The notes under the pieces are model-generated. The model saw nothing but the letters and a program-made list of their open reading frames with translations, searched no databases and was not told the DNA's origin. 64,000 nt of DNA from an uncultured Actinomycetes bacterium (GTDB lineage: Bacteria; Actinomycetota; Acidimicrobiia; IMCC26256; PALSA-610): positions 644,588 to 708,587 of the forward strand of contig CAVUFH010000003.1 in assembly GCA_963740835.1 (NCBI GenBank), written 5' to 3'. This document shows, in pieces, positions 9,517-45,801 of the stretch. The number at the start of each line of letters is the position of its first letter. Positions within the stretch are counted from its first letter, which is position 1. A program made the translations under genes and the position numbers.

Positions 9517-11361
9517 ATGGCCGACACGTATCCCGCCATCGCCGACCACGGCCTGATCGGCGACCTCCAGACCTGCGCGCTCGTCACCACTGGAGGCGCG
9601 ATCGACTGGTTCTGCGCCCCTCGCTTCGACTCCCCGAGCATCTTCGGATCGCTGCTCGACCAGCAGAAGGGCGGCCAGTTCTCCATCACCCCGGCCGGCA
9701 CCGACTACACGACGAAGCAGCTCTACTTCCCCGACACCGGGGTGCTCATCACCCGGTTCATGGCCGAATGCGGGGTGGCCGAGATCCACGACTTCATGCC
9801 GATCGAGAACCCCGGGCAGCCCTCGGAGCGGCACCGCATCGTGCGCATGGTGAAGGTGCCCCGCGGCGAGGTGCAGCTCACGATGGAGGTGGCACCGCGC
9901 TTCGACTACGGGCGGGCCGCGCACACGCTCGAATCGACCGAGCACGGCGCGGTGTTCACGAGCGGCAAGACGACGCTCACGCTGCACTCGACGGTGCCGC
10001 TGGGGACGCGCGAGAACGACGTCGTCGGCGAGTTCACACTGCGGACGGGTGACGTCGGTGGCTTCATCCTCGAGTCCGCGTCGGGGACTCTTCCGCGACA
10101 CGTCGACGCGGAAGAGCTCGACGGCTGCTTCGTTTCCACGGTCGCCGCGTGGCGCGGCTGGCTCGCGGGCTCGACCTATCACGGCCGCTGGCGCGACATG
10201 GTGAACCGCGCCGCGATCACGTTGAAGCTGCTCACCTACGCGCCGACCGGCGCGCCCGTCGCCGCCGCGACAACCGGCCTGCCCGAGCAAGTGGGCGGTG
10301 AGCGCAACTGGGACTACCGCTACACGTGGTTGCGCGACGCGTCGTTCACGGTGCAGGCGCTCGACCGGCTCGGGTTCAAATACGACGCGATCGCCTTCCT
10401 GACCTGGCTGCGCGACCGCGTCGAGAAGACGAAGATGGACGAGAACGGTCCGCTGCGGATCATGTACCGCGTCGATGGCACCGAGGATCTCGAGGAGTAC
10501 TCCCTCGACAACTTCGAGGGCTACATGGGTTCGTCGCCCGTCCGCATCGGCAACGGCGCGTCGTCGCAGCTCCAGCTGGACACGTACGGCGAGATGATGG
10601 ACGCGATCTGGCATGCCGAGCGCGAGCAGGCCGCGATCGGGCAGCGGGGTTGGAAGGACCTCAGCGGCATGATCGACTGGCTCTGCGACAACTGGGACCA
10701 GCCCGAGGAAGGGATCTGGGAGACGCGCGGCGGTCGCCAGCCGTTCGTGTACGGCCGGATGATGTGCTGGGTCGCGCTCGACCGCGCCATCCGCATGGCC
10801 ACCCAGACCGGTGCGCGTCCCGCGCCGCTCGAGAGGTGGACGAAGGTGCGCGACCAGATCAACGAGCAGATCGTCGCGCAAGGTTGGAACGAAGAGATCA
10901 AGGGGTTGGTGCAGCACTACGGGAGCGACGTGCTCGACGCGTCGGTGCTCGCGGCGCTGCGGCTGCACTATCTCGTGCCGACCGACGCGATCTGGCTCGG
11001 AACGCTCGCCGCGATCGAGGACAAGCTCGTGTCCGACAGCCTGGTGTACCGGTACAACCCGGAAGCGTCGCCCGACGGTTTGCAGGGCTCCGAGGGCACG
11101 TTCTCGATGTGCACGTTCTGGTACGTCGACGCGTTGACGCGCACCGGCCGGCTCGACGACGCGCGCCTGGTGTTCGAGAAGATGCTGACGTACGCGAACC
11201 ACCTCGGCTTGTACGGCGAGGAGCTCGCGCAGACCGGCGAGCAACTCGGCAACTTCCCGCAGGCGTTCACGCACTTGTCGCTCATCACCGCCGCGGTCGA
11301 TCTCGACGCGGCGTTGAACCGGCGCGCCGCCGCGGGTCACGCGGCGCAGGCGACGACGTAG
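9517..11361 (+). CDS. Glycoside hydrolase family 15 protein (glucoamylase/trehalase-like)
   Basis: 614 aa. N-terminal beta-sandwich plus (alpha/alpha)6 catalytic domain motifs (GLPEQVGGERNWDYRYTWLRDASF, TFWYVDAL, GLYGEEL). Confidence 0.85.
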   Translation: MADTYPAIADHGLIGDLQTCALVTTGGAIDWFCAPRFDSPSIFGSLLDQQKGGQFSITPAGTDYTTKQLYFPDTGVLITRFMAECGVAEIHDFMPIENPGQPSERHRIVRMVKVPRGEVQLTMEVAPRFDYGRAAHTLESTEHGAVFTSGKTTLTLHSTVPLGTRENDVVGEFTLRTGDVGGFILESASGTLPRHVDAEELDGCFVSTVAAWRGWLAGSTYHGRWRDMVNRAAITLKLLTYAPTGAPVAAATTGLPEQVGGERNWDYRYTWLRDASFTVQALDRLGFKYDAIAFLTWLRDRVEKTKMDENGPLRIMYRVDGTEDLEEYSLDNFEGYMGSSPVRIGNGASSQLQLDTYGEMMDAIWHAEREQAAIGQRGWKDLSGMIDWLCDNWDQPEEGIWETRGGRQPFVYGRMMCWVALDRAIRMATQTGARPAPLERWTKVRDQINEQIVAQGWNEEIKGLVQHYGSDVLDASVLAALRLHYLVPTDAIWLGTLAAIEDKLVSDSLVYRYNPEASPDGLQGSEGTFSMCTFWYVDALTRTGRLDDARLVFEKMLTYANHLGLYGEELAQTGEQLGNFPQAFTHLSLITAAVDLDAALNRRAAAGHAAQATT

Positions 11362-11370
11362 CCGCCGGCT

Positions 11371-12804
11371 GTGGGCGCTCGTCTTCGTCGTCACATCGGG
11401 CCGGGTCGCGGCGTCCCCGACGCGCCGCCCGGCGCGCGCCATCGGGTCGTGATCGTCGGTGGCGGCTTCGGCGGCCTGCCGGCGAGCCGGCTGCTCTCGG
11501 ACATGCCGGTTGACGTCACGCTCGTCGACCGGCGCAACCACCACCTCTTCCAGCCGCTGCTCTACCAGGTCGCGACGGGGCTGCTCTCTCCCGGCCAGAT
11601 CGCGCCGCCCCTTCGCCACATCCTGCGCAAGGCAAAGAACGTGCGCGTCGAGCTGGCGGAAGTGACGGGCTTCGATCTCGAACGGCGGGTCGTGCACGTG
11701 TCGCGCATGCCAGGCGAGGCCATTGAGATCCCTTACGACAGCCTCATCGTCGCCGGCGGCTCGGGGCAGTCGTACTTCGGTCACGACGAGTTCGCGCTCT
11801 ACGCGCCGGGCATGAAGACGATCGACGACGCACTCGAGCTCCGGCGCCGGCTACTCGGCGCGTTCGAGCTGGCCGAGACCGCGACCGACGAGGAGGAGCG
11901 CCGGCAGTGGTTGACGATCGCGCTCGTCGGCGCGGGGCCGACCGGTGTCGAGCTCGCGGGTCAGATCCGGGAGCTCGCAGCGCGTTCGCTGCGCTCCGAC
12001 TTCCGCACGTTCGAGCCCGAGACGGTGCGCGTCGTGCTGCTCGACGGTGGCAAGGAGCCGCTCGCGACGTTCGGGGACGACTTGTCGGCGAAGGCCGCAA
12101 AGGAGCTCGAGGGGCTCGGCGTCGAGCTGCGGATGGGCGCCCGCGTCACCAACGTCGACGCCTTCGGCGTCGATGTGCAGACCGACGCGGGAAACGAACG
12201 CATCGCGGCGCGCACGGTGGTGTGGGCCGCGGGTGTGCAGGCGTCACCGCTGGCCGCGATGCTCGCCGAGCAGACCGGCGCCGAAGTCGACCGGGCCGGT
12301 CGCATCGCGACGCTTCCCGACCTCACCCTTCCCGGGCATCCCGAGGTGTTCGCCGTCGGCGACATGGTGACGCTCGAGCATCTCCCCGGCGTCGCCGAAG
12401 TCGCGATGCAGGGCAGTCTCCACTCCGCGAACACGATCCTGCGCCGCTTGAAGGGCGAGCAGGATGCGCTGCCGTTCAAGTACCGGGACCTCGGCAGCGT
12501 CGCGGCCATCGGTCGGTTCCGCGCGATCTGCAGTGTCGGAAAGCTGCGCCTCAGCGGCTTCGCGGGTTGGGTCGTGTGGATGTTCGTCCACCTCGCGTTC
12601 TTGACCGGCTGGGGCAACCGCTTCACGACGATGCTCCGCTGGCTCCGCTGGCTCGTCGGTCGCAACCGCACCGAACGCGTGTTCAGCGTCGCGCACACGG
12701 GCGGCGACCTGAGCACGCCGGCCGAGGTGCGGGCGATCATCGAGCCGAACCAGTATCCGGGGCTCGACGCGGCCGGCGCGGAACCTCCCGGGCCGCCCGG
12801 CTGA
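11371..12804 (+). CDS. ndh: Type II NADH:quinone oxidoreductase (NDH-2)
   Basis: VVIVGGGFGGL... HHLFQPLLYQVATG and a second dinucleotide fold (IALVGAGPTGVELAG) followed by FAVGDM. The exact start is uncertain (GTG at 11371 or downstream). Confidence 0.85.
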   Translation: MGARLRRHIGPGRGVPDAPPGARHRVVIVGGGFGGLPASRLLSDMPVDVTLVDRRNHHLFQPLLYQVATGLLSPGQIAPPLRHILRKAKNVRVELAEVTGFDLERRVVHVSRMPGEAIEIPYDSLIVAGGSGQSYFGHDEFALYAPGMKTIDDALELRRRLLGAFELAETATDEEERRQWLTIALVGAGPTGVELAGQIRELAARSLRSDFRTFEPETVRVVLLDGGKEPLATFGDDLSAKAAKELEGLGVELRMGARVTNVDAFGVDVQTDAGNERIAARTVVWAAGVQASPLAAMLAEQTGAEVDRAGRIATLPDLTLPGHPEVFAVGDMVTLEHLPGVAEVAMQGSLHSANTILRRLKGEQDALPFKYRDLGSVAAIGRFRAICSVGKLRLSGFAGWVVWMFVHLAFLTGWGNRFTTMLRWLRWLVGRNRTERVFSVAHTGGDLSTPAEVRAIIEPNQYPGLDAAGAEPPGPPG

Positions 12805-12814
12805 GTCGGCCGGC

Positions 12815-12868
12815 GACTGCCGGATCGTTCACCCTGCATGGATCGTTCACCCTGCATGGATCGTTCAC
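12815..12868. repeat. 18-bp direct tandem repeat x3 (GATCGTTCACCCTGCATG, third copy has 1 mismatch), intergenic
   Basis: Read directly from the sequence. It lies between the ndh stop and the probable start of the next gene. It creates the spurious MDRSPC-MDRSPS N-terminus in the ORF track. Confidence 0.8.
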
Positions 12869-12915
12869 CCAGCATGGATGATGTGCGTTCGGCACCCACT
12901 CACGAGAATGGCGCG

Positions 12916-39511: not shown

Positions 39512-40849
39512 TCACGTGCCGGCGTCGACGATCGGGCGTCCGGCGACGACGCGCATGGGCGCGATGTGGAGGTACCGGCTGCTCGGGTAGCCGACGTTCG
39601 GCTGCGAGTACGCGTGGAACGCGACCTGCAATTGCCCGGCGGCGTCCCGGAACACCTCGGCGCCGCCCGGCCCGGCCAGCTTCGACGCCGAACTGAGCAC
39701 CCGGTTCTCGGGCGGTTTGGTGCACGGGCCGGAGGGGCCGGCGCAGATCGCGTAGGCGGTCGTGTACGCCGGCGACTGCCAGTCGGCGGCTGAATAAAGG
39801 AGAACATAGGTGCCACCGGCGAGCACGAGCGACGGCCCTTCGACGTTGCGCCGTTCGAATGCGCGGTCGGCGGCGAGCAAGCGGTGCGGCGCACCGGTGA
39901 CGCCGCGACCGTCCGCCGTCAGCTCCTGCGACCACAGCGCGGCGCCGGTCCCTTCCTCCTTCCAGAGGATGTAGGCGCGACCGTCGGCATCGACGAACGG
40001 GCTCGGGTCGATGTCGCCACCACCGGCGCACAGGATCGGTCCCCACGAGTCGTCGACGAAGGGCCCGGCCGGCGACTTCGACACGGCGCGCGTGATGCAT
40101 TGACCGTTGGTGATGTTGTTGCGCGTCGTGTAGTAGAGGACGAACGACCCGTTGCGCGCGAGTACCGAGGGCGCCCACGTGGTCCCGGGCCGAGCCCATC
40201 CCGGCAGTACCGGGAGCGCGTTGCCGACGAGCTGCCACGTCATCAGATCCTTCGAACTGATCACCTGGACGTCGCCGGCGCCGGAGTTCGTCGAGTACGC
40301 GTAGTACGTGTCACCGGCGCGCAGCACGAACGGATCGGGGAAGTCGTACGGGAACCGCGCACCCGTTGCGTAGGCAAGCGTGCGGGTGCAGGAGTCGGCC
40401 GAGAACCGGAGTGCCGAGACCGCCGTCGCCGCGTCACCTGCGCGGTTGGCAGCGACCGCGCTCGAGACGCCGGCGAGGCACACGTTGGTCTGGGTTGCGT
40501 TCGTCGCGAGAAGGAAGCGGTCCGTGTTCGCCTGCTCGAGCGAGCTCTGCACCGAGGCGATGTCGGCGCGGGTGTTCTGCGTGACGGCGTCCATCCAGGT
40601 GCGCGCCGCGGTCGCCGCCACGATCTCGGAACGGGTGGCGGCGATCGCCTTCTCGGTCAGCCCACTGACGTCTCGCGCGTCGTCGACACTCGCAGCCGAC
40701 CTCGCGAGCGTGGCGCGCGCGGCCGCGAGGTCGACGCGGTGGTCGTGCAGGCGCGTACCGGCGCGGCCGTACTGAACGCCGAAGGTCACCGCGGCCGCGA
40801 TCATGAGCATCGCCGCGATCGCGATTGCGATGACGGCACGCGCCCTCAC
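39512..40849 (-). CDS. Membrane-anchored glycoside hydrolase family 43 protein
   Basis: The catalytic region carries DPF (FPDPFVLRAGDTYYAYST) and later Asp/Glu motifs. The N-terminus has a TM helix and a coiled-coil. The GTG start overlaps the upstream gene's stop (GTGA). Confidence 0.75.
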   Translation of the reverse strand: MRARAVIAIAIAAMLMIAAAVTFGVQYGRAGTRLHDHRVDLAAARATLARSAASVDDARDVSGLTEKAIAATRSEIVAATAARTWMDAVTQNTRADIASVQSSLEQANTDRFLLATNATQTNVCLAGVSSAVAANRAGDAATAVSALRFSADSCTRTLAYATGARFPYDFPDPFVLRAGDTYYAYSTNSGAGDVQVISSKDLMTWQLVGNALPVLPGWARPGTTWAPSVLARNGSFVLYYTTRNNITNGQCITRAVSKSPAGPFVDDSWGPILCAGGGDIDPSPFVDADGRAYILWKEEGTGAALWSQELTADGRGVTGAPHRLLAADRAFERRNVEGPSLVLAGGTYVLLYSAADWQSPAYTTAYAICAGPSGPCTKPPENRVLSSASKLAGPGGAEVFRDAAGQLQVAFHAYSQPNVGYPSSRYLHIAPMRVVAGRPIVDAGT

Positions 40850-41388
40850 AACGAAGCTCCGACCCGCGCGCAGGTGCCTTCGGCGCGTTGCACGGTGCGG
40901 GCCAGGCCTCCGAAATCGCCGACGCCGGCCTGGTTCAACGCTTGGGCGACGCCGAGCAGACACTGGCCGAGGACGTCGAGTTGCGCGCGCCGCGCCTCCA
41001 GATCCGTGGTGGCGGCTGCGAGATCCGTCTGCAAGCCGGTGAGCTCCGCGCCCGCGGCGACGAGCGCCTTCGCGACGGCATCGCGTTCACGTTTGCTGCC
41101 CCCGAGCGCGGCACGCGTCGCAACGAGCGCCGCCTGCGCGGCCGTGAGCCCGCGCCGGGCGAGCGCGAGATCGGCGCGGCTGCGCGCGATGTCGAGTCGC
41201 GTTGCATCTACGGCTGCGCTCGTGCGGTCGATCGCGTCGCGCCGCGCGATCCATGCGTGCGCCCCGACGCCGGCCGCGGCACAGACGACGGCGATGGTCG
41301 CGACGATGGCGACCGATCGCCGCCCGGCCCGGGATCGCAGCCGGTGCCGCGTCCGGACGGTCGCGGCGGCCGCGAGTGTGTCGATGCT
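40846..41388 (-). CDS. Hypothetical membrane-anchored coiled-coil protein, paralogous to the N-terminal stalk of the adjacent GH43
   Basis: TM helix AIVATIAVVCAAAGVGAHAWIA followed by an Ala/Arg/Leu-rich coiled region. The same architecture and composition are seen in the GH43 N-terminal 170 aa. Confidence 0.45.
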   Translation of the reverse strand, partial: SIDTLAAAATVRTRHRLRSRAGRRSVAIVATIAVVCAAAGVGAHAWIARRDAIDRTSAAVDATRLDIARSRADLALARRGLTAAQAALVATRAALGGSKRERDAVAKALVAAGAELTGLQTDLAAATTDLEARRAQLDVLGQCLLGVAQALNQAGVGDFGGLARTVQRAEGTCARVGASL

Positions 41389-41663
41389 CACGTCCCTCCC
41401 CACCGCCGGTGCGACGCCGAGCCCTACAACCACTTGCCACCCTACGGACGGGCCGGGTGTGCGAACAGTCCCTACCGGCACTTTCGAGTGGCCGGCGGGT
41501 GAACAACCCGCGGTCGCGCGCCAGCTGCGGGCGAGCAAGCCACCGACCCACGATCGCGCGAGCCACGCGCGGCGATTGCGTTGGATCCCGCCACGCCGAG
41601 GTTCCTGCTCCGCATGGCGCTCGCGACGCGACGCGCCCGCCGGAACCATGCTGAGATGGCGCG

Positions 41664-43070
41664 ATGGGCCACCGCCTGAACCCGCTTCTGCCCCCGCTGC
41701 TCCGTCCGCTCGCGAGCGACGAGTACGCCCCGATGCCGTACACGGCGCGGGACGACAAGGTCCTGGCGCGGTACGCCGCGGCCGCGCCCGACACTGCGCG
41801 TCGGCTCGGTCTCGCGACCGCGGGCTACCTCGCCGATCGGCGCACGACGGCGGCATCGCTGCGCGCGATCAACGCCGCGCACGAAGACACGTTCTACGAC
41901 GTGCCCGACGCCGCGACCCTGGACCTCGAGGCGGCCGACGCGGCGTTCCGCACCGATGCGCCGGTCATCGACGTGCAGACCCACCTCGTCGATCCCGGGC
42001 GGTGGGATCTCCCGGCGGCGAGCGCGCTCGAAGGGTTCCTGCGGGTGGTCGACCCCGATCGGTGGCCGGGTCCGGTCGATCCGCGGGCGATTGACGCCGC
42101 CGCGTGGGCGAGCCTCGTGTTCGGTACGAGCGAGACGGCCATCGCGTTGCTCACGTCGACGCCGGGCACCGCCACGACCAACGTGCTCACCAACCCGCAG
42201 ATCGCGACCGCACGAGACGTCATCGATCGGTACGCGGGAACCGGCCGCGTGCTGACGCACGCGATCGTGCACCCGAATGTGCCGGGCGAGCTGGACACGA
42301 TGAGCGAGACGAGCGCGAGGCTGGGGCCGTCCGGGTGGAAGGTGTACACGCTGTGGGGCCCGCCGACCGCAGCGTCGCCCACCGGCGGTTGGTTCCTGGA
42401 CGACGAAGCGATCGGCTTCCCGTTCCTCGAACGCGTGCGCGCGCTCGGCCCGCGCGTTGTCGCCGCGCACAAGGGGCTCGGCGGTCCGGTGCCCGACGCC
42501 GCGGTTGCCGCGGCCTCGCCGCGCGACATCGGGCCCGCTGCCGCCGCCTTCCCCGATCTCACGTTCGTCGTGTACCACTCCGGCTACGAGCGCGATCCGC
42601 ACGGTGAGGAAGGCGCGTACCGCGTGGGCGGTCGTGCCAAAGGCGTGGATCGACTCGTGCAGAGCGTGACCGACGCGGGCATCGGTCCCGAGGGCAACGT
42701 CTATGCCGAGCTCGGGAGTACGTGGTTCTTGATGTTGCGCCGGCCGCGCGAAGCCGCGCACGTGCTGGGCAAGTTGCTCCGCGCGCTCGGCCCGCATCGG
42801 ATCCTGTGGGGTACGGACTCGGTCTGGTACGGGTCGCCGCAACCGCTCATCGATGCCTTCCGCGCGTTCCGGATCCCGGAATCGATGCAGGAGCGGTACG
42901 GGTATCCCGCGCTGACGCGCGCGATGAAGGAACGGATCCTCGGCCGGAACGCGCGTGCGGTCTACGAAGTCGACGACGAGACCGTGTCGCGTGCCGCGGC
43001 CGCCGGCCCCGACTGGGTCACCAACGGTGCGGTCGCGCTCGCGCGCGGACTCTCGGCCAACGTGGGCTGA
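41664..43070 (+). CDS. Amidohydrolase-2 family protein
   Basis: DVQTHL ... HxxxD-like patterns and WGTDSVW near the C-terminus. 468 aa. Confidence 0.7.
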   Translation: MGHRLNPLLPPLLRPLASDEYAPMPYTARDDKVLARYAAAAPDTARRLGLATAGYLADRRTTAASLRAINAAHEDTFYDVPDAATLDLEAADAAFRTDAPVIDVQTHLVDPGRWDLPAASALEGFLRVVDPDRWPGPVDPRAIDAAAWASLVFGTSETAIALLTSTPGTATTNVLTNPQIATARDVIDRYAGTGRVLTHAIVHPNVPGELDTMSETSARLGPSGWKVYTLWGPPTAASPTGGWFLDDEAIGFPFLERVRALGPRVVAAHKGLGGPVPDAAVAAASPRDIGPAAAAFPDLTFVVYHSGYERDPHGEEGAYRVGGRAKGVDRLVQSVTDAGIGPEGNVYAELGSTWFLMLRRPREAAHVLGKLLRALGPHRILWGTDSVWYGSPQPLIDAFRAFRIPESMQERYGYPALTRAMKERILGRNARAVYEVDDETVSRAAAAGPDWVTNGAVALARGLSANVG

Positions 43071-43591
43071 GGTTCTTCGTCAGGATTTGCAACCTCGGCT
43101 TCGGCCTCGGCGTCCGCCGGCGCGGGCCCGCGCTTGTCGGGCCACAGCGCGAACGTCACCGCGATCCCGGCCAGCAGCGTGAGGAGGACCGGCAGGAGGA
43201 TCAGACCGCGCGTCGGGATCTCGCCGACGTCGACGATGGGCTTGCCGACCAAGTGCGCGCGATCCGGTGTGACGTCGTCCGTGTCGTTCTTGTTGTCGCC
43301 CTGGAACAGGTATGTCCCGTCCGGGAGGATCCGCTTGATGCGGTGGACGACGAGCATTCCCTCGCCGGGCTGGCCGTCGGGGATGCGGTAGATCGCGATG
43401 TCGCCGACCTCGTAGTCGCCGGACTTGCGCGCGTAGAGGAGGTCGCCCTGCTCGTACGTCGGCTTCATCGACTCGCCGCGCACCACGACGAACAGCGCCT
43501 GCCCGCCGAATCGCGTCGGCCACAGCGCGAACGCGAGCCCGCCCAGAATCACGATCGAGAAGAAAAGCCCGAGCACCCGACGAGCCGTCAC
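42962..43591 (-). CDS. SipW/archaeal-type (Ser-His) signal peptidase I
   Basis: N-terminal TM helix, RGESMKPT (catalytic Ser box), and GDLL...VVHRI (His box, not the Lys of P-type SPases). The C-terminal TM helix is LILLPVLLTLLAGIAV. It overlaps the convergent amidohydrolase by about 108 bp. Confidence 0.7.
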   Translation of the reverse strand: MTARRVLGLFFSIVILGGLAFALWPTRFGGQALFVVVRGESMKPTYEQGDLLYARKSGDYEVGDIAIYRIPDGQPGEGMLVVHRIKRILPDGTYLFQGDNKNDTDDVTPDRAHLVGKPIVDVGEIPTRGLILLPVLLTLLAGIAVTFALWPDKRGPAPADAEAEAEVANPDEEPQPTLAESPRASATAPLVTQSGPAAAARDTVSSSTS

Positions 43592-43613
43592 TGCGAATCT
43601 CCCGGCCCGGCCC

Positions 43614-44360
43614 TCATGGGTTGTCCAGGTGGAAGTCGTCGAAGCGCAGGCCGTTGCTCAACCACTGGTACGGACCGGCGCGCTGGTGCGTCGCGTTCTT
43701 GAAGAGGGTCTGCTCGGCCGCGGTGAGCGTGTAGGTGACGACCTGCACGCCGTTGATGTACGCGGTGAGCGCGCCGGTGCTGAGCGATGACAGGGTCAAC
43801 GTGATCGACGCGGGCGCGGTGGCGATGCCACCCGGATAGAGGTTGCTGATGACGTTGACCTCGGTCCAGGCACCGCCGCTGAACTTCCACAGCTCCATCG
43901 AGCCATTGGCGGTGTTGGTCCACTCGGCCGTGAGGAACTCGGTGCCGGCCGCGTTGCGGTTGATCGTGAGGCCGACGTCGAACGTGGTCGCGCCATTGCG
44001 GAAGATCGTGGCGGACACCGTGCGGCTCGGCGCGCCGGCGTCGATCACGAGCGACGAGTTCAAGGTCGTCGACTGCGCGCCATTGCTCTGGATGGTCCAC
44101 GTGCCGCCGGCCGGGTTCACTGACCACGTCTTCGCGCCGCCGTCGGTGACGGTGCCGTTGAGGTTGGTGCCGTTGGTGCCGTCGAAGTTCTCCCACGCGA
44201 CGACCGTCGGCGCGCCAGTGCTCGCCGCCATGGTCAGCGCGGTCAGCTTCGCGGTCGTGATGCCGCCGATGGGAGCTGCGGACGCGACACCGCCGCCGAC
44301 GGCGAGCGTCAGCGCGGTGACGAGGGAGATGGTGGCGAGAGACTTGCCCGCAGGCAGCAT
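43614..44360 (-). CDS. Secreted beta-rich protein, a putative SipW substrate
   Basis: Signal peptide LVTALTLAVGGGVASAA followed by PIGGITTAKL. The Asn/Thr/Gly-rich mature part is beta-rich in composition. Confidence 0.6.
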   Translation of the reverse strand: MLPAGKSLATISLVTALTLAVGGGVASAAPIGGITTAKLTALTMAASTGAPTVVAWENFDGTNGTNLNGTVTDGGAKTWSVNPAGGTWTIQSNGAQSTTLNSSLVIDAGAPSRTVSATIFRNGATTFDVGLTINRNAAGTEFLTAEWTNTANGSMELWKFSGGAWTEVNVISNLYPGGIATAPASITLTLSSLSTGALTAYINGVQVVTYTLTAAEQTLFKNATHQRAGPYQWLSNGLRFDDFHLDNP

Positions 44361-44438
44361 GGGGAACTCATCCCATGGCGTCGAAGATGGCGGGTCCCGG
44401 CGGGTCCGACCCCGCCGGGACTCGTTGGATCAGGTTGC

Positions 44439-44858
44439 TCAGCCGGCGATGACGACGGCCGCACCGAGCACGGCGTTGGCGTTGGCGCCGGGTGCCGTGA
44501 AGGTGACGAGCGCGGTCGTGCCTGCGATCGAGGCGACGGTGCCGCTCCCGAGGGCGACGCCCGTTCCGTCCTTCAGCGTGAGGCTGAGGGTTTTGCCGGC
44601 GCACGCCGGGGCGATGCCGGTCACGTTGACCGCCGTCGTCTGGTAACGGCCGAGCGTCGCGTCGTACGTGTTGGTGTACGCGAGCGTCACGCCGTCGAGG
44701 TCGCAGCCGCCGATCACGGCGGTGTCGGCACCGAGGCTGTTGCCCGTGATGCCACCGAGGCTCGCGGCCGAGGCGCCCACCACGCCGAGCGTCGCCGCCC
44801 CGGCGATGATCGCGGCGGCGATGCGCCGGCGACGCTTGCGGTCGGTCTTGTCAGTCAT
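44439..44858 (-). CDS. Small secreted protein, TasA/camelysin-like candidate SipW substrate
   Basis: Basic n-region (RKRRRR), hydrophobic core, then ASAAS followed by LGGITGNSLGADTA. It shares the post-signal motif with the neighbouring gene. Confidence 0.5.
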   Translation of the reverse strand: MTDKTDRKRRRRIAAAIIAGAATLGVVGASAASLGGITGNSLGADTAVIGGCDLDGVTLAYTNTYDATLGRYQTTAVNVTGIAPACAGKTLSLTLKDGTGVALGSGTVASIAGTTALVTFTAPGANANAVLGAAVVIAG

Positions 44859-45153: not shown

Positions 45154-45801
45154 ATGACGAACCGACAGTGGTGGATCGTGACCCTCGGGGTGCTCGCGGT
45201 GGTTGCGCTCGCGGCGGGCGCGGCCGCGATCTGGAGTGGTGACGACGCGCGCCACGCCGCGTCGCGCCCGACGGCGACGACGACATCGACGACGGTCGCG
45301 GCAACGACGACATCGACGACATCGACGACCGCCGCACCTACGACGACGGCTCCGATGGTGACGTCGACCGTGCCCCCGTCAACGGCCAAGCCGTCGGTGC
45401 CGATTCCGGGACCGGTCGCCGGCGTCACGACCAGTCAGGGCGGCTCGGGCGAGATCAAGCTCGATTGGGACTCCGTGTCGACGGCGACGGGCTACCGCGT
45501 CCTGCGTTCGGACCAGGCGACCGGGCCGTTCTCCGTTGCGGCCGACGTCAACGTGACCACCGGACTCGCGAGCGCGGTCCCCGGTGTCGTCAACCTGTGG
45601 TCGGACCGGGCCACCTACATCCCGGCGGGGACGCGCGTCCTGCTCGCGGCGGGTACGAAGCAGCACTTCCAGTACGTCGAGGTCGTCTCGGGCGGCGTCC
45701 AGCAGCGGTACTTCGGTGTGGTCGCGTACAACGCGGCGGGCGCCGGTCCGGCGTCTTCCGTCGTGTGCGGGTCGCCGACCGGCTTCCCTTCCTGCCGATG
45801 A
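45154..45801 (+). CDS. Membrane-anchored protein with Thr-rich linker and fibronectin-III-like domain
   Basis: TM helix WWIVTLGVLAVVALAAGAAAIW, a TTTSTTVAATTTSTTSTT linker, and an ...EIKLDWDSVSTATGYRVLRS... FN3-like pattern. Confidence 0.55.
   Translation: MTNRQWWIVTLGVLAVVALAAGAAAIWSGDDARHAASRPTATTTSTTVAATTTSTTSTTAAPTTTAPMVTSTVPPSTAKPSVPIPGPVAGVTTSQGGSGEIKLDWDSVSTATGYRVLRSDQATGPFSVAADVNVTTGLASAVPGVVNLWSDRATYIPAGTRVLLAAGTKQHFQYVEVVSGGVQQRYFGVVAYNAAGAGPASSVVCGSPTGFPSCR

Follow-up and report, generated by a model that had tools for sequence, protein, structure and literature searches.

A conserved cassette of a predicted endoplasmic reticulum-type signal peptidase and two unnamed secreted protein families with a common N-terminal motif in Actinomycetota

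A three-gene cassette in an Acidimicrobiia contig

We analyzed a 64,000-nt stretch of DNA from an uncultured Actinomycetes bacterium (Actinomycetota; Acidimicrobiia; assembly GCA_963740835.1, contig CAVUFH010000003.1, positions 644,588 to 708,587), hereafter called the window. Three co-directional open reading frames (ORFs) on its minus strand make up the cassette described here: a small secreted protein (SMALL), a larger secreted protein (BIG) and a membrane protein predicted to be a signal peptidase of the endoplasmic reticulum (ER)/archaeal type (PEP; Table 1). A model that had seen only the letters and their ORFs (the sequence-only reading) had taken these genes for an export module resembling SipW and TasA of Firmicutes. 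The three ORFs were found exactly where that reading had placed them, as were the strings it had quoted: GASAASLGGITGNSLGAD in SMALL, VASAAPIGGITTAKLTA in BIG, and GESMKPT and VVHRI in PEP.

SMALL was read from an ATG; a GTG start extending it to 152 aa is possible, and its homologues are typically ≈139 aa long. The spacers are short: SMALL and BIG lie 78 nt apart, and BIG and PEP 22 nt. GC content is ≈69% throughout the window, and the plus-strand ORFs that overlap the cassette are the usual high-GC artefacts, homology evidence being present on the minus strand only. The flanking genes are unrelated to the cassette (a GH43 protein, a coiled-coil membrane protein, Amidohydro_2, a PhnB-like protein, a GH13 alpha-amylase and a Thr-rich membrane protein) and do not share its conservation, and the immediate neighbour of SMALL varies even among near-identical relatives; the unit was therefore taken to be the three genes alone. 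By its homologues, the organism belongs to Acidimicrobiia, close to Microthrixaceae.

Table 1. Coordinates of the cassette genes and associated features, in window numbering unless another locus is named
Feature	Coordinates	Strand	Remarks
SMALL	44439-44858	-	139 aa from ATG; secreted protein, presumed major subunit
BIG	43614-44360	-	248 aa; secreted protein
PEP	42962-43591	-	209 aa; predicted membrane ER/archaeal-type signal peptidase I (S26B)
SMALL motif, residues 29-45, ASAASLGGITGNSLGAD	44724-44774	-	AxA, then LGG-I-T-x3-L-G-A-D
BIG motif, residues 26-41, ASAAPIGGITTAKLTA	44238-44285	-	AxA, then the shared motif; aligns with the SMALL motif
PEP Ser41, predicted catalytic	43469-43471	-	homologue invariance
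PEP His83, predicted catalytic	43343-43345	-	homologue invariance
PEP Asp99, predicted catalytic	43295-43297	-	homologue invariance
PEP Asp105, predicted catalytic	43277-43279	-	homologue invariance
Stem-loop in SMALL-BIG spacer	44394-44421	-	GC-rich, 11-bp perfect stem, from RNA folding; no U-tract
SMALL-module fusions, locus L079 (Cellulomonas pakistanensis NBRC 110800)	10760-12286; 12380-12907		downstream of PEP; such fusions occur in a cultured isolate and metagenome-assembled genomes (MAGs)
SMALL-module fusion, locus L060	13554-16022	-	downstream of PEP

The peptidase resembles SEC11 rather than LepB

In Pfam, PEP matched S24 at 9e-9 and S26 at 7e-5. Its best NCBIfam model was TIGR02228 (sigpep_I_arch), on which it scored 44.0 bits, below the cut-off of 51.85, while the orthologue in Cellulomonas scored 52.0 bits, just above it; PEP is best described as a divergent subfamily of TIGR02228-type enzymes. 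On the equivalog model of Bacillus SipW, NF046067, it reached 18.7 bits against a cut-off of 190, and it is therefore no SipW orthologue, only an enzyme of the same type. The sole significant relatives of solved structure were human SEC11A and SEC11C (E 1e-4 to 1e-3), in an alignment that set GESMKPT opposite SGSMEPA and VVHRI opposite IVHRV and matched S41 and H83 of PEP with Ser56 and His96 of SEC11A.

Conservation was followed in 71 homologues from the surveyed loci (see below) and 37 from databases. S41, in the S-M-x-P box, was present in 69 of the 71 locus homologues, the other two having gaps, and was invariant in the database set. H83-R84, in box D, where His stands in place of the Lys general base, was found in all 71, and D99 and D105 in 70 each. 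Over both sets, S41, M42, H83, R84, G98-D99-N100 and D105 are invariant or nearly so. The spacing of D99 and D105 (GDN plus 6) equals that of two conserved Asp residues of Sec11, D116 and D122. Kyte–Doolittle hydropathy over 19 residues exceeded 1.6 at starts 3-9 and 122-134, and two membrane anchors are predicted to flank the catalytic domain, at residues ≈5-25 and ≈128-150, followed by a variable acidic/Pro-rich (Ala/Glu/Pro/Ser-rich) tail on the cytoplasmic side. The TIGR02228 match, the SEC11 alignment and the residue invariance bear out the view of the sequence-only reading that the enzyme is not of the LepB Ser-Lys type: PEP is classed here as a SipW-type signal peptidase of the ER/archaeal kind (MEROPS S26B), with a predicted Ser-His-Asp catalytic pattern.

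The 3′ end of PEP overlaps by 109 bp (42962-43070) the 3′ end of a convergent Amidohydro_2 gene (41664-43070, plus strand), whose Pfam domain stops at residue 435 of 468. PEP is shorter, at 169 aa, in close relatives (P0191). The tail of either PEP or the Amidohydro_2 protein may have been over-called, or the conservation of the PEP tail may reflect the gene on the opposite strand. One called metagenomic protein of 402 aa (P0166) joins a BIG-like region to a Peptidase_S24 domain; it is either a true BIG–PEP fusion or a frameshifted assembly, and either way it confirms that BIG and PEP are adjacent.

SMALL and BIG share an N-terminal module

The two secreted families have in common a signal peptide with an invariant AxA, followed by (A)-x-L-G-G-(I/V/L)-T-x3-L-x-A. 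When their family profiles were compared with hhalign, only the N-terminal 34 columns aligned (96% probability, E 4.5e-9). A strict form of the motif, A.A[AS].[LIVM]GG[ILVM][TSGN], was searched for in the six-frame ORFs of the window and of 114 loci. It occurred in 90 of 14,745 ORFs, comprising 71 SMALL and 19 BIG proteins and no others, and within the window it was restricted to the SMALL and BIG ORFs. We take the common motif not to be a chance resemblance.

In the family alignments, A29, A31, A32, L34, G35, G36, L42, G43, A44 and D45 of SMALL are invariant or nearly so; in BIG, A28 is invariant and A26, G32 and L39 are nearly invariant. The most conserved stretch of SMALL reads G-A-S-A-A-S-L-G-G-I-T-S-x-S-L-G-A-D-x-x-V-V-x-S-C-D-x-D-G-V, and that of BIG reads A-x-A-A-x-L-G-G-x-T-x-A-x-L-T-A ... 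G-A-P-T-V-V-A-W-E-N-F. The motif has conserved Thr or Ser at positions +3 to +6. Residues 25-57 of SMALL, which hold 16 of its ≈31 invariant or nearly invariant columns, are the most conserved part of the protein. The motif is kept in SMALL paralogues as well; SMALL from Cellulomonas has LNLT where others have LGGIT.

The invariant AxA comes right after a hydrophobic core of 15–17 residues and has the form of a canonical −3/−1 site, which points to ASA|A as the probable place of cleavage and would put the conserved motif at the N-terminus of the mature protein. An alternative cleavage point after the motif, just before LGAD (compare GGGTWA|AFND in TasA), was rejected: position −1 would often be K, R, N or D in the homologues, and the AxA upstream is invariant. 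Twin-arginine export was also considered and set aside: RRRR stands in the n-region of the window protein, but in Gaiellaceae homologues there is just K-R, and the feature is not one of the family.

The cassette is conserved in both directions

A survey based on SMALL, taking one genome per GTDB species and annotating six-frame ORFs with hidden Markov models, kept 78 loci, 68 of them testable. The hosts included Acidimicrobiia, Gaiellaceae and other Thermoleophilia, Solirubrobacterales, Nocardioidaceae and Propionibacteriales, together with the isolate Cellulomonas pakistanensis NBRC 110800 and one MAG from Limnocylindria (Chloroflexota). PEP lay on the same strand no more than 4 kb downstream of SMALL in 64 of the testable loci, and between the genes or divergent in three more, giving 67 of 68. 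Conversely, a PEP-based search of metagenome contigs found SMALL and/or BIG directly upstream in 26 of the 27 loci with enough upstream DNA. The most frequent architectures among the SMALL loci were SMALL-SMALL2-PEP (26 loci), SMALL-BIG-PEP (19), SMALL-PEP (8) and SMALL-SMALL-BIG-PEP (5), with rarer forms besides, and the core was therefore taken to be SMALL plus PEP. Only Acidimicrobiia have BIG; in other hosts its place is taken by a divergent paralogue of SMALL.

Tandem SMALL paralogues occur, and the SMALL module is also found fused to larger C-terminal domains (in the Cellulomonas locus L079 and in L060, for example), as would be expected for major and minor subunits. One such Cellulomonas protein, of 361 aa, carries extra domains after the SMALL-like module. 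These larger fusions are candidate tip or adhesin subunits.

The sequence-only reading was to be given up if PEP proved to be a Ser-Lys enzyme, if its neighbours had no cleavable signal peptides, or if they did not co-occur with the peptidase in other genomes. None of these was found, since the enzyme is of the predicted Ser-His type, both neighbours carry N-terminal signal peptides and the common motif (by family alignment, hhalign and motif scan), and the co-occurrence across genomes holds whether one starts from SMALL or from PEP.

Predicted folds of SMALL and BIG

SMALL consists of a signal peptide (residues ≈1-31), a conserved N-terminal extension (32-50) and an immunoglobulin (Ig)-like sandwich (51-139). 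The AlphaFold2 (AF2) model, built from a 108-sequence alignment, showed a confident six-stranded Ig-like β-sandwich over ≈88 residues (≈51-139), with predicted local distance difference test (pLDDT) values of at least 90 for 77 residues; residues 25-50 had a pLDDT below 50 although they are highly conserved. Cys52 is invariant and Cys86 nearly so, which suggests that the two form an extracytoplasmic disulfide. A profile search of 1.84 billion cluster representatives returned 1,847 relatives of SMALL at E ≤ 1e-3, each a 50%-identity cluster, and 886 at E ≤ 1e-10. Both SMALL and BIG belong to well-populated but entirely unnamed families, and neither had a Pfam or NCBIfam match even at permissive thresholds.

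In BIG, the signal peptide and the shared motif are followed by a jelly roll at residues 50-248 (AF2 model from 60 sequences, mean pLDDT 87.7). Structure comparison matched this domain to concanavalin A (ConA)-like lectins/glucanases and to jelly rolls of the carbohydrate-binding module (CBM) family CBM66, and from the fold we infer that BIG may bind carbohydrate. No sequence-family match to lectins or CBMs was found in Pfam or NCBIfam. The protein is rich in Asn/Thr sequon-like NGT repeats.

A hairpin follows SMALL

The spacer after SMALL contains a perfect stem-loop (Table 1). Strong hairpins directly after SMALL were also seen in other loci, where 56% had z < −2 and the mean z was −2.4 against mononucleotide shuffles. 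They recur across distant loci with unrelated sequences (for example L012, L037, L040, L042 and L043). The hairpin is a candidate intra-operon attenuator or mRNA stabiliser; its position suggests that it may raise the expression of SMALL above that of the genes after it, a pattern often seen with major structural subunits. A scan for sigma-70 promoters gave no match on either strand, and a scan for U-tract terminators gave none on the minus strand and two on the plus strand, no more than in shuffled sequence, as expected for an actinobacterium of 70% GC.

Comparison with known systems

NCBIfam was scanned at E ≤ 10 with SMALL, BIG, their isolated N-termini, four homologues and three Cellulomonas paralogues. 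TIGR04088, TIGR04089 and TIGR04090 matched none of these at this threshold; TasA, run as a control, scored 38 bits on TIGR04088 (cut-off 19) and also matched TIGR04090 and TIGR04089. In Pfam, PF12389 (Peptidase_M73) gave no match to SMALL or BIG at E ≤ 1. A relationship to TasA was rejected by comparison of family profiles, with hhalign probabilities below 1% (0.1% for SMALL and 0.2% for BIG), and TasA was absent from the structural matches of both proteins, whose models are an Ig-like sandwich and a ConA/CBM66-like lectin jelly roll, not the TasA-like jelly roll that the sequence-only reading had proposed to look for. Its description of the substrates as TasA/camelysin-like had to be abandoned. 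What their sequences support is a functional analogy to SipW-dependent-type proteins, in that SMALL and BIG are encoded beside a predicted ER-type peptidase and share an N-terminal motif, and no family membership.

TIGR04089, which NCBIfam lists as 'alternate-type signal peptide domain-containing protein', has an actinobacterial scope. Its cassettes resemble the present one in the high-GC Gram-positive host, the tandem paralogues, the GG-containing N-terminal motif and the adjoining ER-type peptidase; unlike them, SMALL, BIG and the Cellulomonas relatives do not match the model. Since the TasA control does, SMALL and BIG constitute a separate, unmodelled family. The statement of the earlier reading that nothing equivalent is described for high-GC Gram-positives was overstated in view of TIGR04089. 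Homologues of TasA in PF12389 have moreover been reported in Actinobacteriota (PMC9245690). The concept is thus not new for Actinobacteria, and the claim stands only insofar as the family, motif and folds of SMALL and BIG are covered by no model. A literature search on SipW in Actinobacteria, on TIGR04088/89/90 and on alternate-type signal peptides found no paper on this cassette family.

The tapA-sipW-tasA operon of B. subtilis is similar in several respects: an ER-type Ser-His peptidase with N- and C-terminal anchors is encoded with the proteins that it processes, these have a conserved signal region at the N-terminus in common, and the secreted proteins comprise a major and an accessory one. 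It differs in that PEP is not a SipW orthologue, that SMALL and BIG have other folds and no sequence or profile similarity to TasA, and that the gene order is not the same. The motif of SMALL and BIG also follows the AxA site, whereas TIGR04088 recognises GGGTxA|xFxD. In both TasA and TapA, the mature N-terminus acts as a donor strand (PMC9674648, PMC10151520). The sipW-bsaA-bsaB-bsaC locus of C. perfringens likewise combines SipW with several secreted paralogues whose N-terminal segment is disordered in monomer models; in BsaA this loop becomes the donor strand (PMC11580942). The accessory protein there, BsaC, has a VWA binding domain where BIG has a predicted lectin (PMC11580942). Unlike BsaA, SMALL has no match to TIGR04090, is half the size and has a different fold; no isopeptide N-E-K triad is evident in it, although no search aimed at one was made.

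Donor strands are also formed by the conserved first residues of the subunits of archaeal bundling pili (AbpA/AbpB; PMC9245690) and Sulfolobus threads (PMC9715654), which are cleaved by signal peptidase I, and these filament systems include an accessory TapA-like protein (PMC9245690, PMC9715654). In contrast to the cassette, they have no dedicated peptidase gene and depend on the generic signal peptidase of archaea, and their subunits are larger, with jelly-roll or two-domain structures and no detected homology to SMALL. Taken by sequence, the cassette appears to work like SipW with TasA/TapA or with BsaA/B/C, but with new substrate families that match none of the models for those proteins.

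A model for the cassette and its alternatives

We consider it likely that PEP, SMALL and BIG form a dedicated peptidase–substrate cassette, with SMALL and BIG as cognate substrates of PEP. The enzyme is presumed to be an extra one beside a housekeeping LepB, and its synteny with SMALL and BIG suggests that they need it. The cassette probably builds a cell-surface structure. As to what that structure is, we tentatively propose a fibre in which SMALL would polymerize by donor-strand exchange, with BIG as a cap or anchor. In this self-contained operon, ordered SMALL–hairpin–BIG–PEP, both secreted proteins would be exported by a Sec-type signal peptide and cut by PEP at AxA|A. The mature proteins would then begin with a conserved extension of ≈20 residues, unstructured in the monomer. 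In both SMALL and BIG this extension has an L-x-A-x-T-x-V alternation, so it is suited to forming a β-strand, and it could insert into the six-stranded sandwich of a neighbouring SMALL by donor-strand complementation, as in TasA, BsaA, archaeal bundling pili and threads. The product would be a surface fibre or matrix built of SMALL. BIG, with the same extension and a lectin body instead of a sandwich, would sit at one end of the polymer, where it could be a tip adhesin that binds carbohydrate or else an anchor or nucleator at the cell wall, analogous to TapA; in other lineages the divergent second SMALL paralogue would take this role.

Several observations weigh against this model. The AxA site is canonical, and a housekeeping LepB could in principle cut it. 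One testable SMALL locus, L073, had no PEP, and one PEP locus, L114, no SMALL or BIG partner, in the DNA available. The 85-nt segment with the window hairpin had a z-score of only −1.68, which is statistically weak. The monomer model of SMALL neither shows nor excludes an open groove that could receive a donor strand. No known pilin or matrix subunit matched SMALL significantly in structure.

The last of these points is shared by the main rival explanation, which we regard as rather unlikely: that there is a cassette but no polymer, the N-terminal module being a recognition or sorting tag for PEP (timing release from the membrane, for instance), and SMALL and BIG acting as monomers, secreted or on the surface, SMALL as a small domain for binding or protection and BIG as a lectin. 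The synteny and motif data fit this explanation equally well, and BIG resembles soluble CBMs and lectins. However, the conserved, strand-like segment runs ≈15–20 residues past AxA, more than signal peptidases usually read, and the tandem SMALL paralogues and the SMALL dosage that the hairpin may enhance are typical of structural polymers. It is improbable, in our estimate, that the LGG-T/S-rich segment is instead a site of modification or attachment (O-glycosylation or linkage to the envelope) for which PEP is merely a processing step; the conserved Thr/Ser of the motif and the NGT repeats of BIG would agree with this, but it is Gly, Leu and Ala, not Ser or Thr, that occupy the invariant positions, and the cassette loci have no conserved gene for a glycosyltransferase, a sortase or another modifying enzyme. 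Finally, the idea that the adjacency is incidental, PEP being a general signal peptidase or an S24 LexA/UmuD-like self-cleaver and the motif ordinary signal-peptide composition, draws on the better Pfam score for S24 than S26, the TIGR02228 score under its cut-off and the generic nature of AxA, and is largely refuted and very improbable given the two-way synteny across several classes, the exclusivity of the motif to SMALL and BIG, and the features of PEP itself, which has two predicted membrane anchors and a Ser-His-Asp pattern and is closest, among solved structures, to SEC11, unlike the soluble S24 enzymes with their Ser-Lys dyad.

In its fullest form, the fibre model would make SMALL a new class of bacterial surface filament: an Ig-like pilin of ≈9 kDa, polymerized through an N-terminal donor strand with no chaperone–usher, sortase or type IV machinery and licensed by a dedicated ER-type signal peptidase. 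Its cap or anchor would be either the BIG lectin or a minor paralogue of SMALL. Such filaments would be widespread among uncultured Actinomycetota of soil and wastewater (Acidimicrobiia and Thermoleophilia) and would occur in one cultured Cellulomonas at least. As a whole, this is a possibility that we hold to be somewhat doubtful.

Surroundings of the cassette

Further along the minus strand, a gene at 39512-40963 encodes a GH43 glycoside hydrolase with an N-terminal membrane anchor and an Ala-rich, coiled-coil-like spacer of ≈150 residues, and upstream of it, at 40846-41460 on the same strand, lies a gene for a second membrane-anchored coiled-coil protein of like composition with no Pfam match. 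The pair appears to be surface-tethered, unusual and unrelated to the cassette. On the plus strand, divergent from SMALL, a gene at 45154-45801 encodes a membrane-anchored protein with a long Thr/Ser/Ala-rich linker and a C-terminal β-rich domain, again with no Pfam match; an OsmC gene is found at that position in the close relatives L002 and L003, and the protein is therefore outside the conserved cassette. The loci L001–L003, from long-read metagenome contigs in ENA, are near-identical copies of the window locus with split or frameshifted genes: the alpha-amylase and Amidohydro_2 genes are each in two pieces, and PEP is in two frames in L001. These splits are consistent with indel errors in long-read assembly rather than with biology.

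Significance

The cassette ties two large, unannotated families of secreted proteins to a dedicated peptidase of predicted eukaryote/archaea type and to a crisp sequence motif, which broadens the SipW paradigm beyond substrates of the TasA family. New annotation models could be started from the motif and the three family profiles. Soil, sludge and aquatic settings harbour abundant Acidimicrobiia and Thermoleophilia, most of them uncultured, and to our knowledge essentially nothing is known of their cell-surface biology. In these lineages, the cassette may encode a surface fibre or matrix; at the least, it is a candidate for a new peptidase–substrate sorting system.

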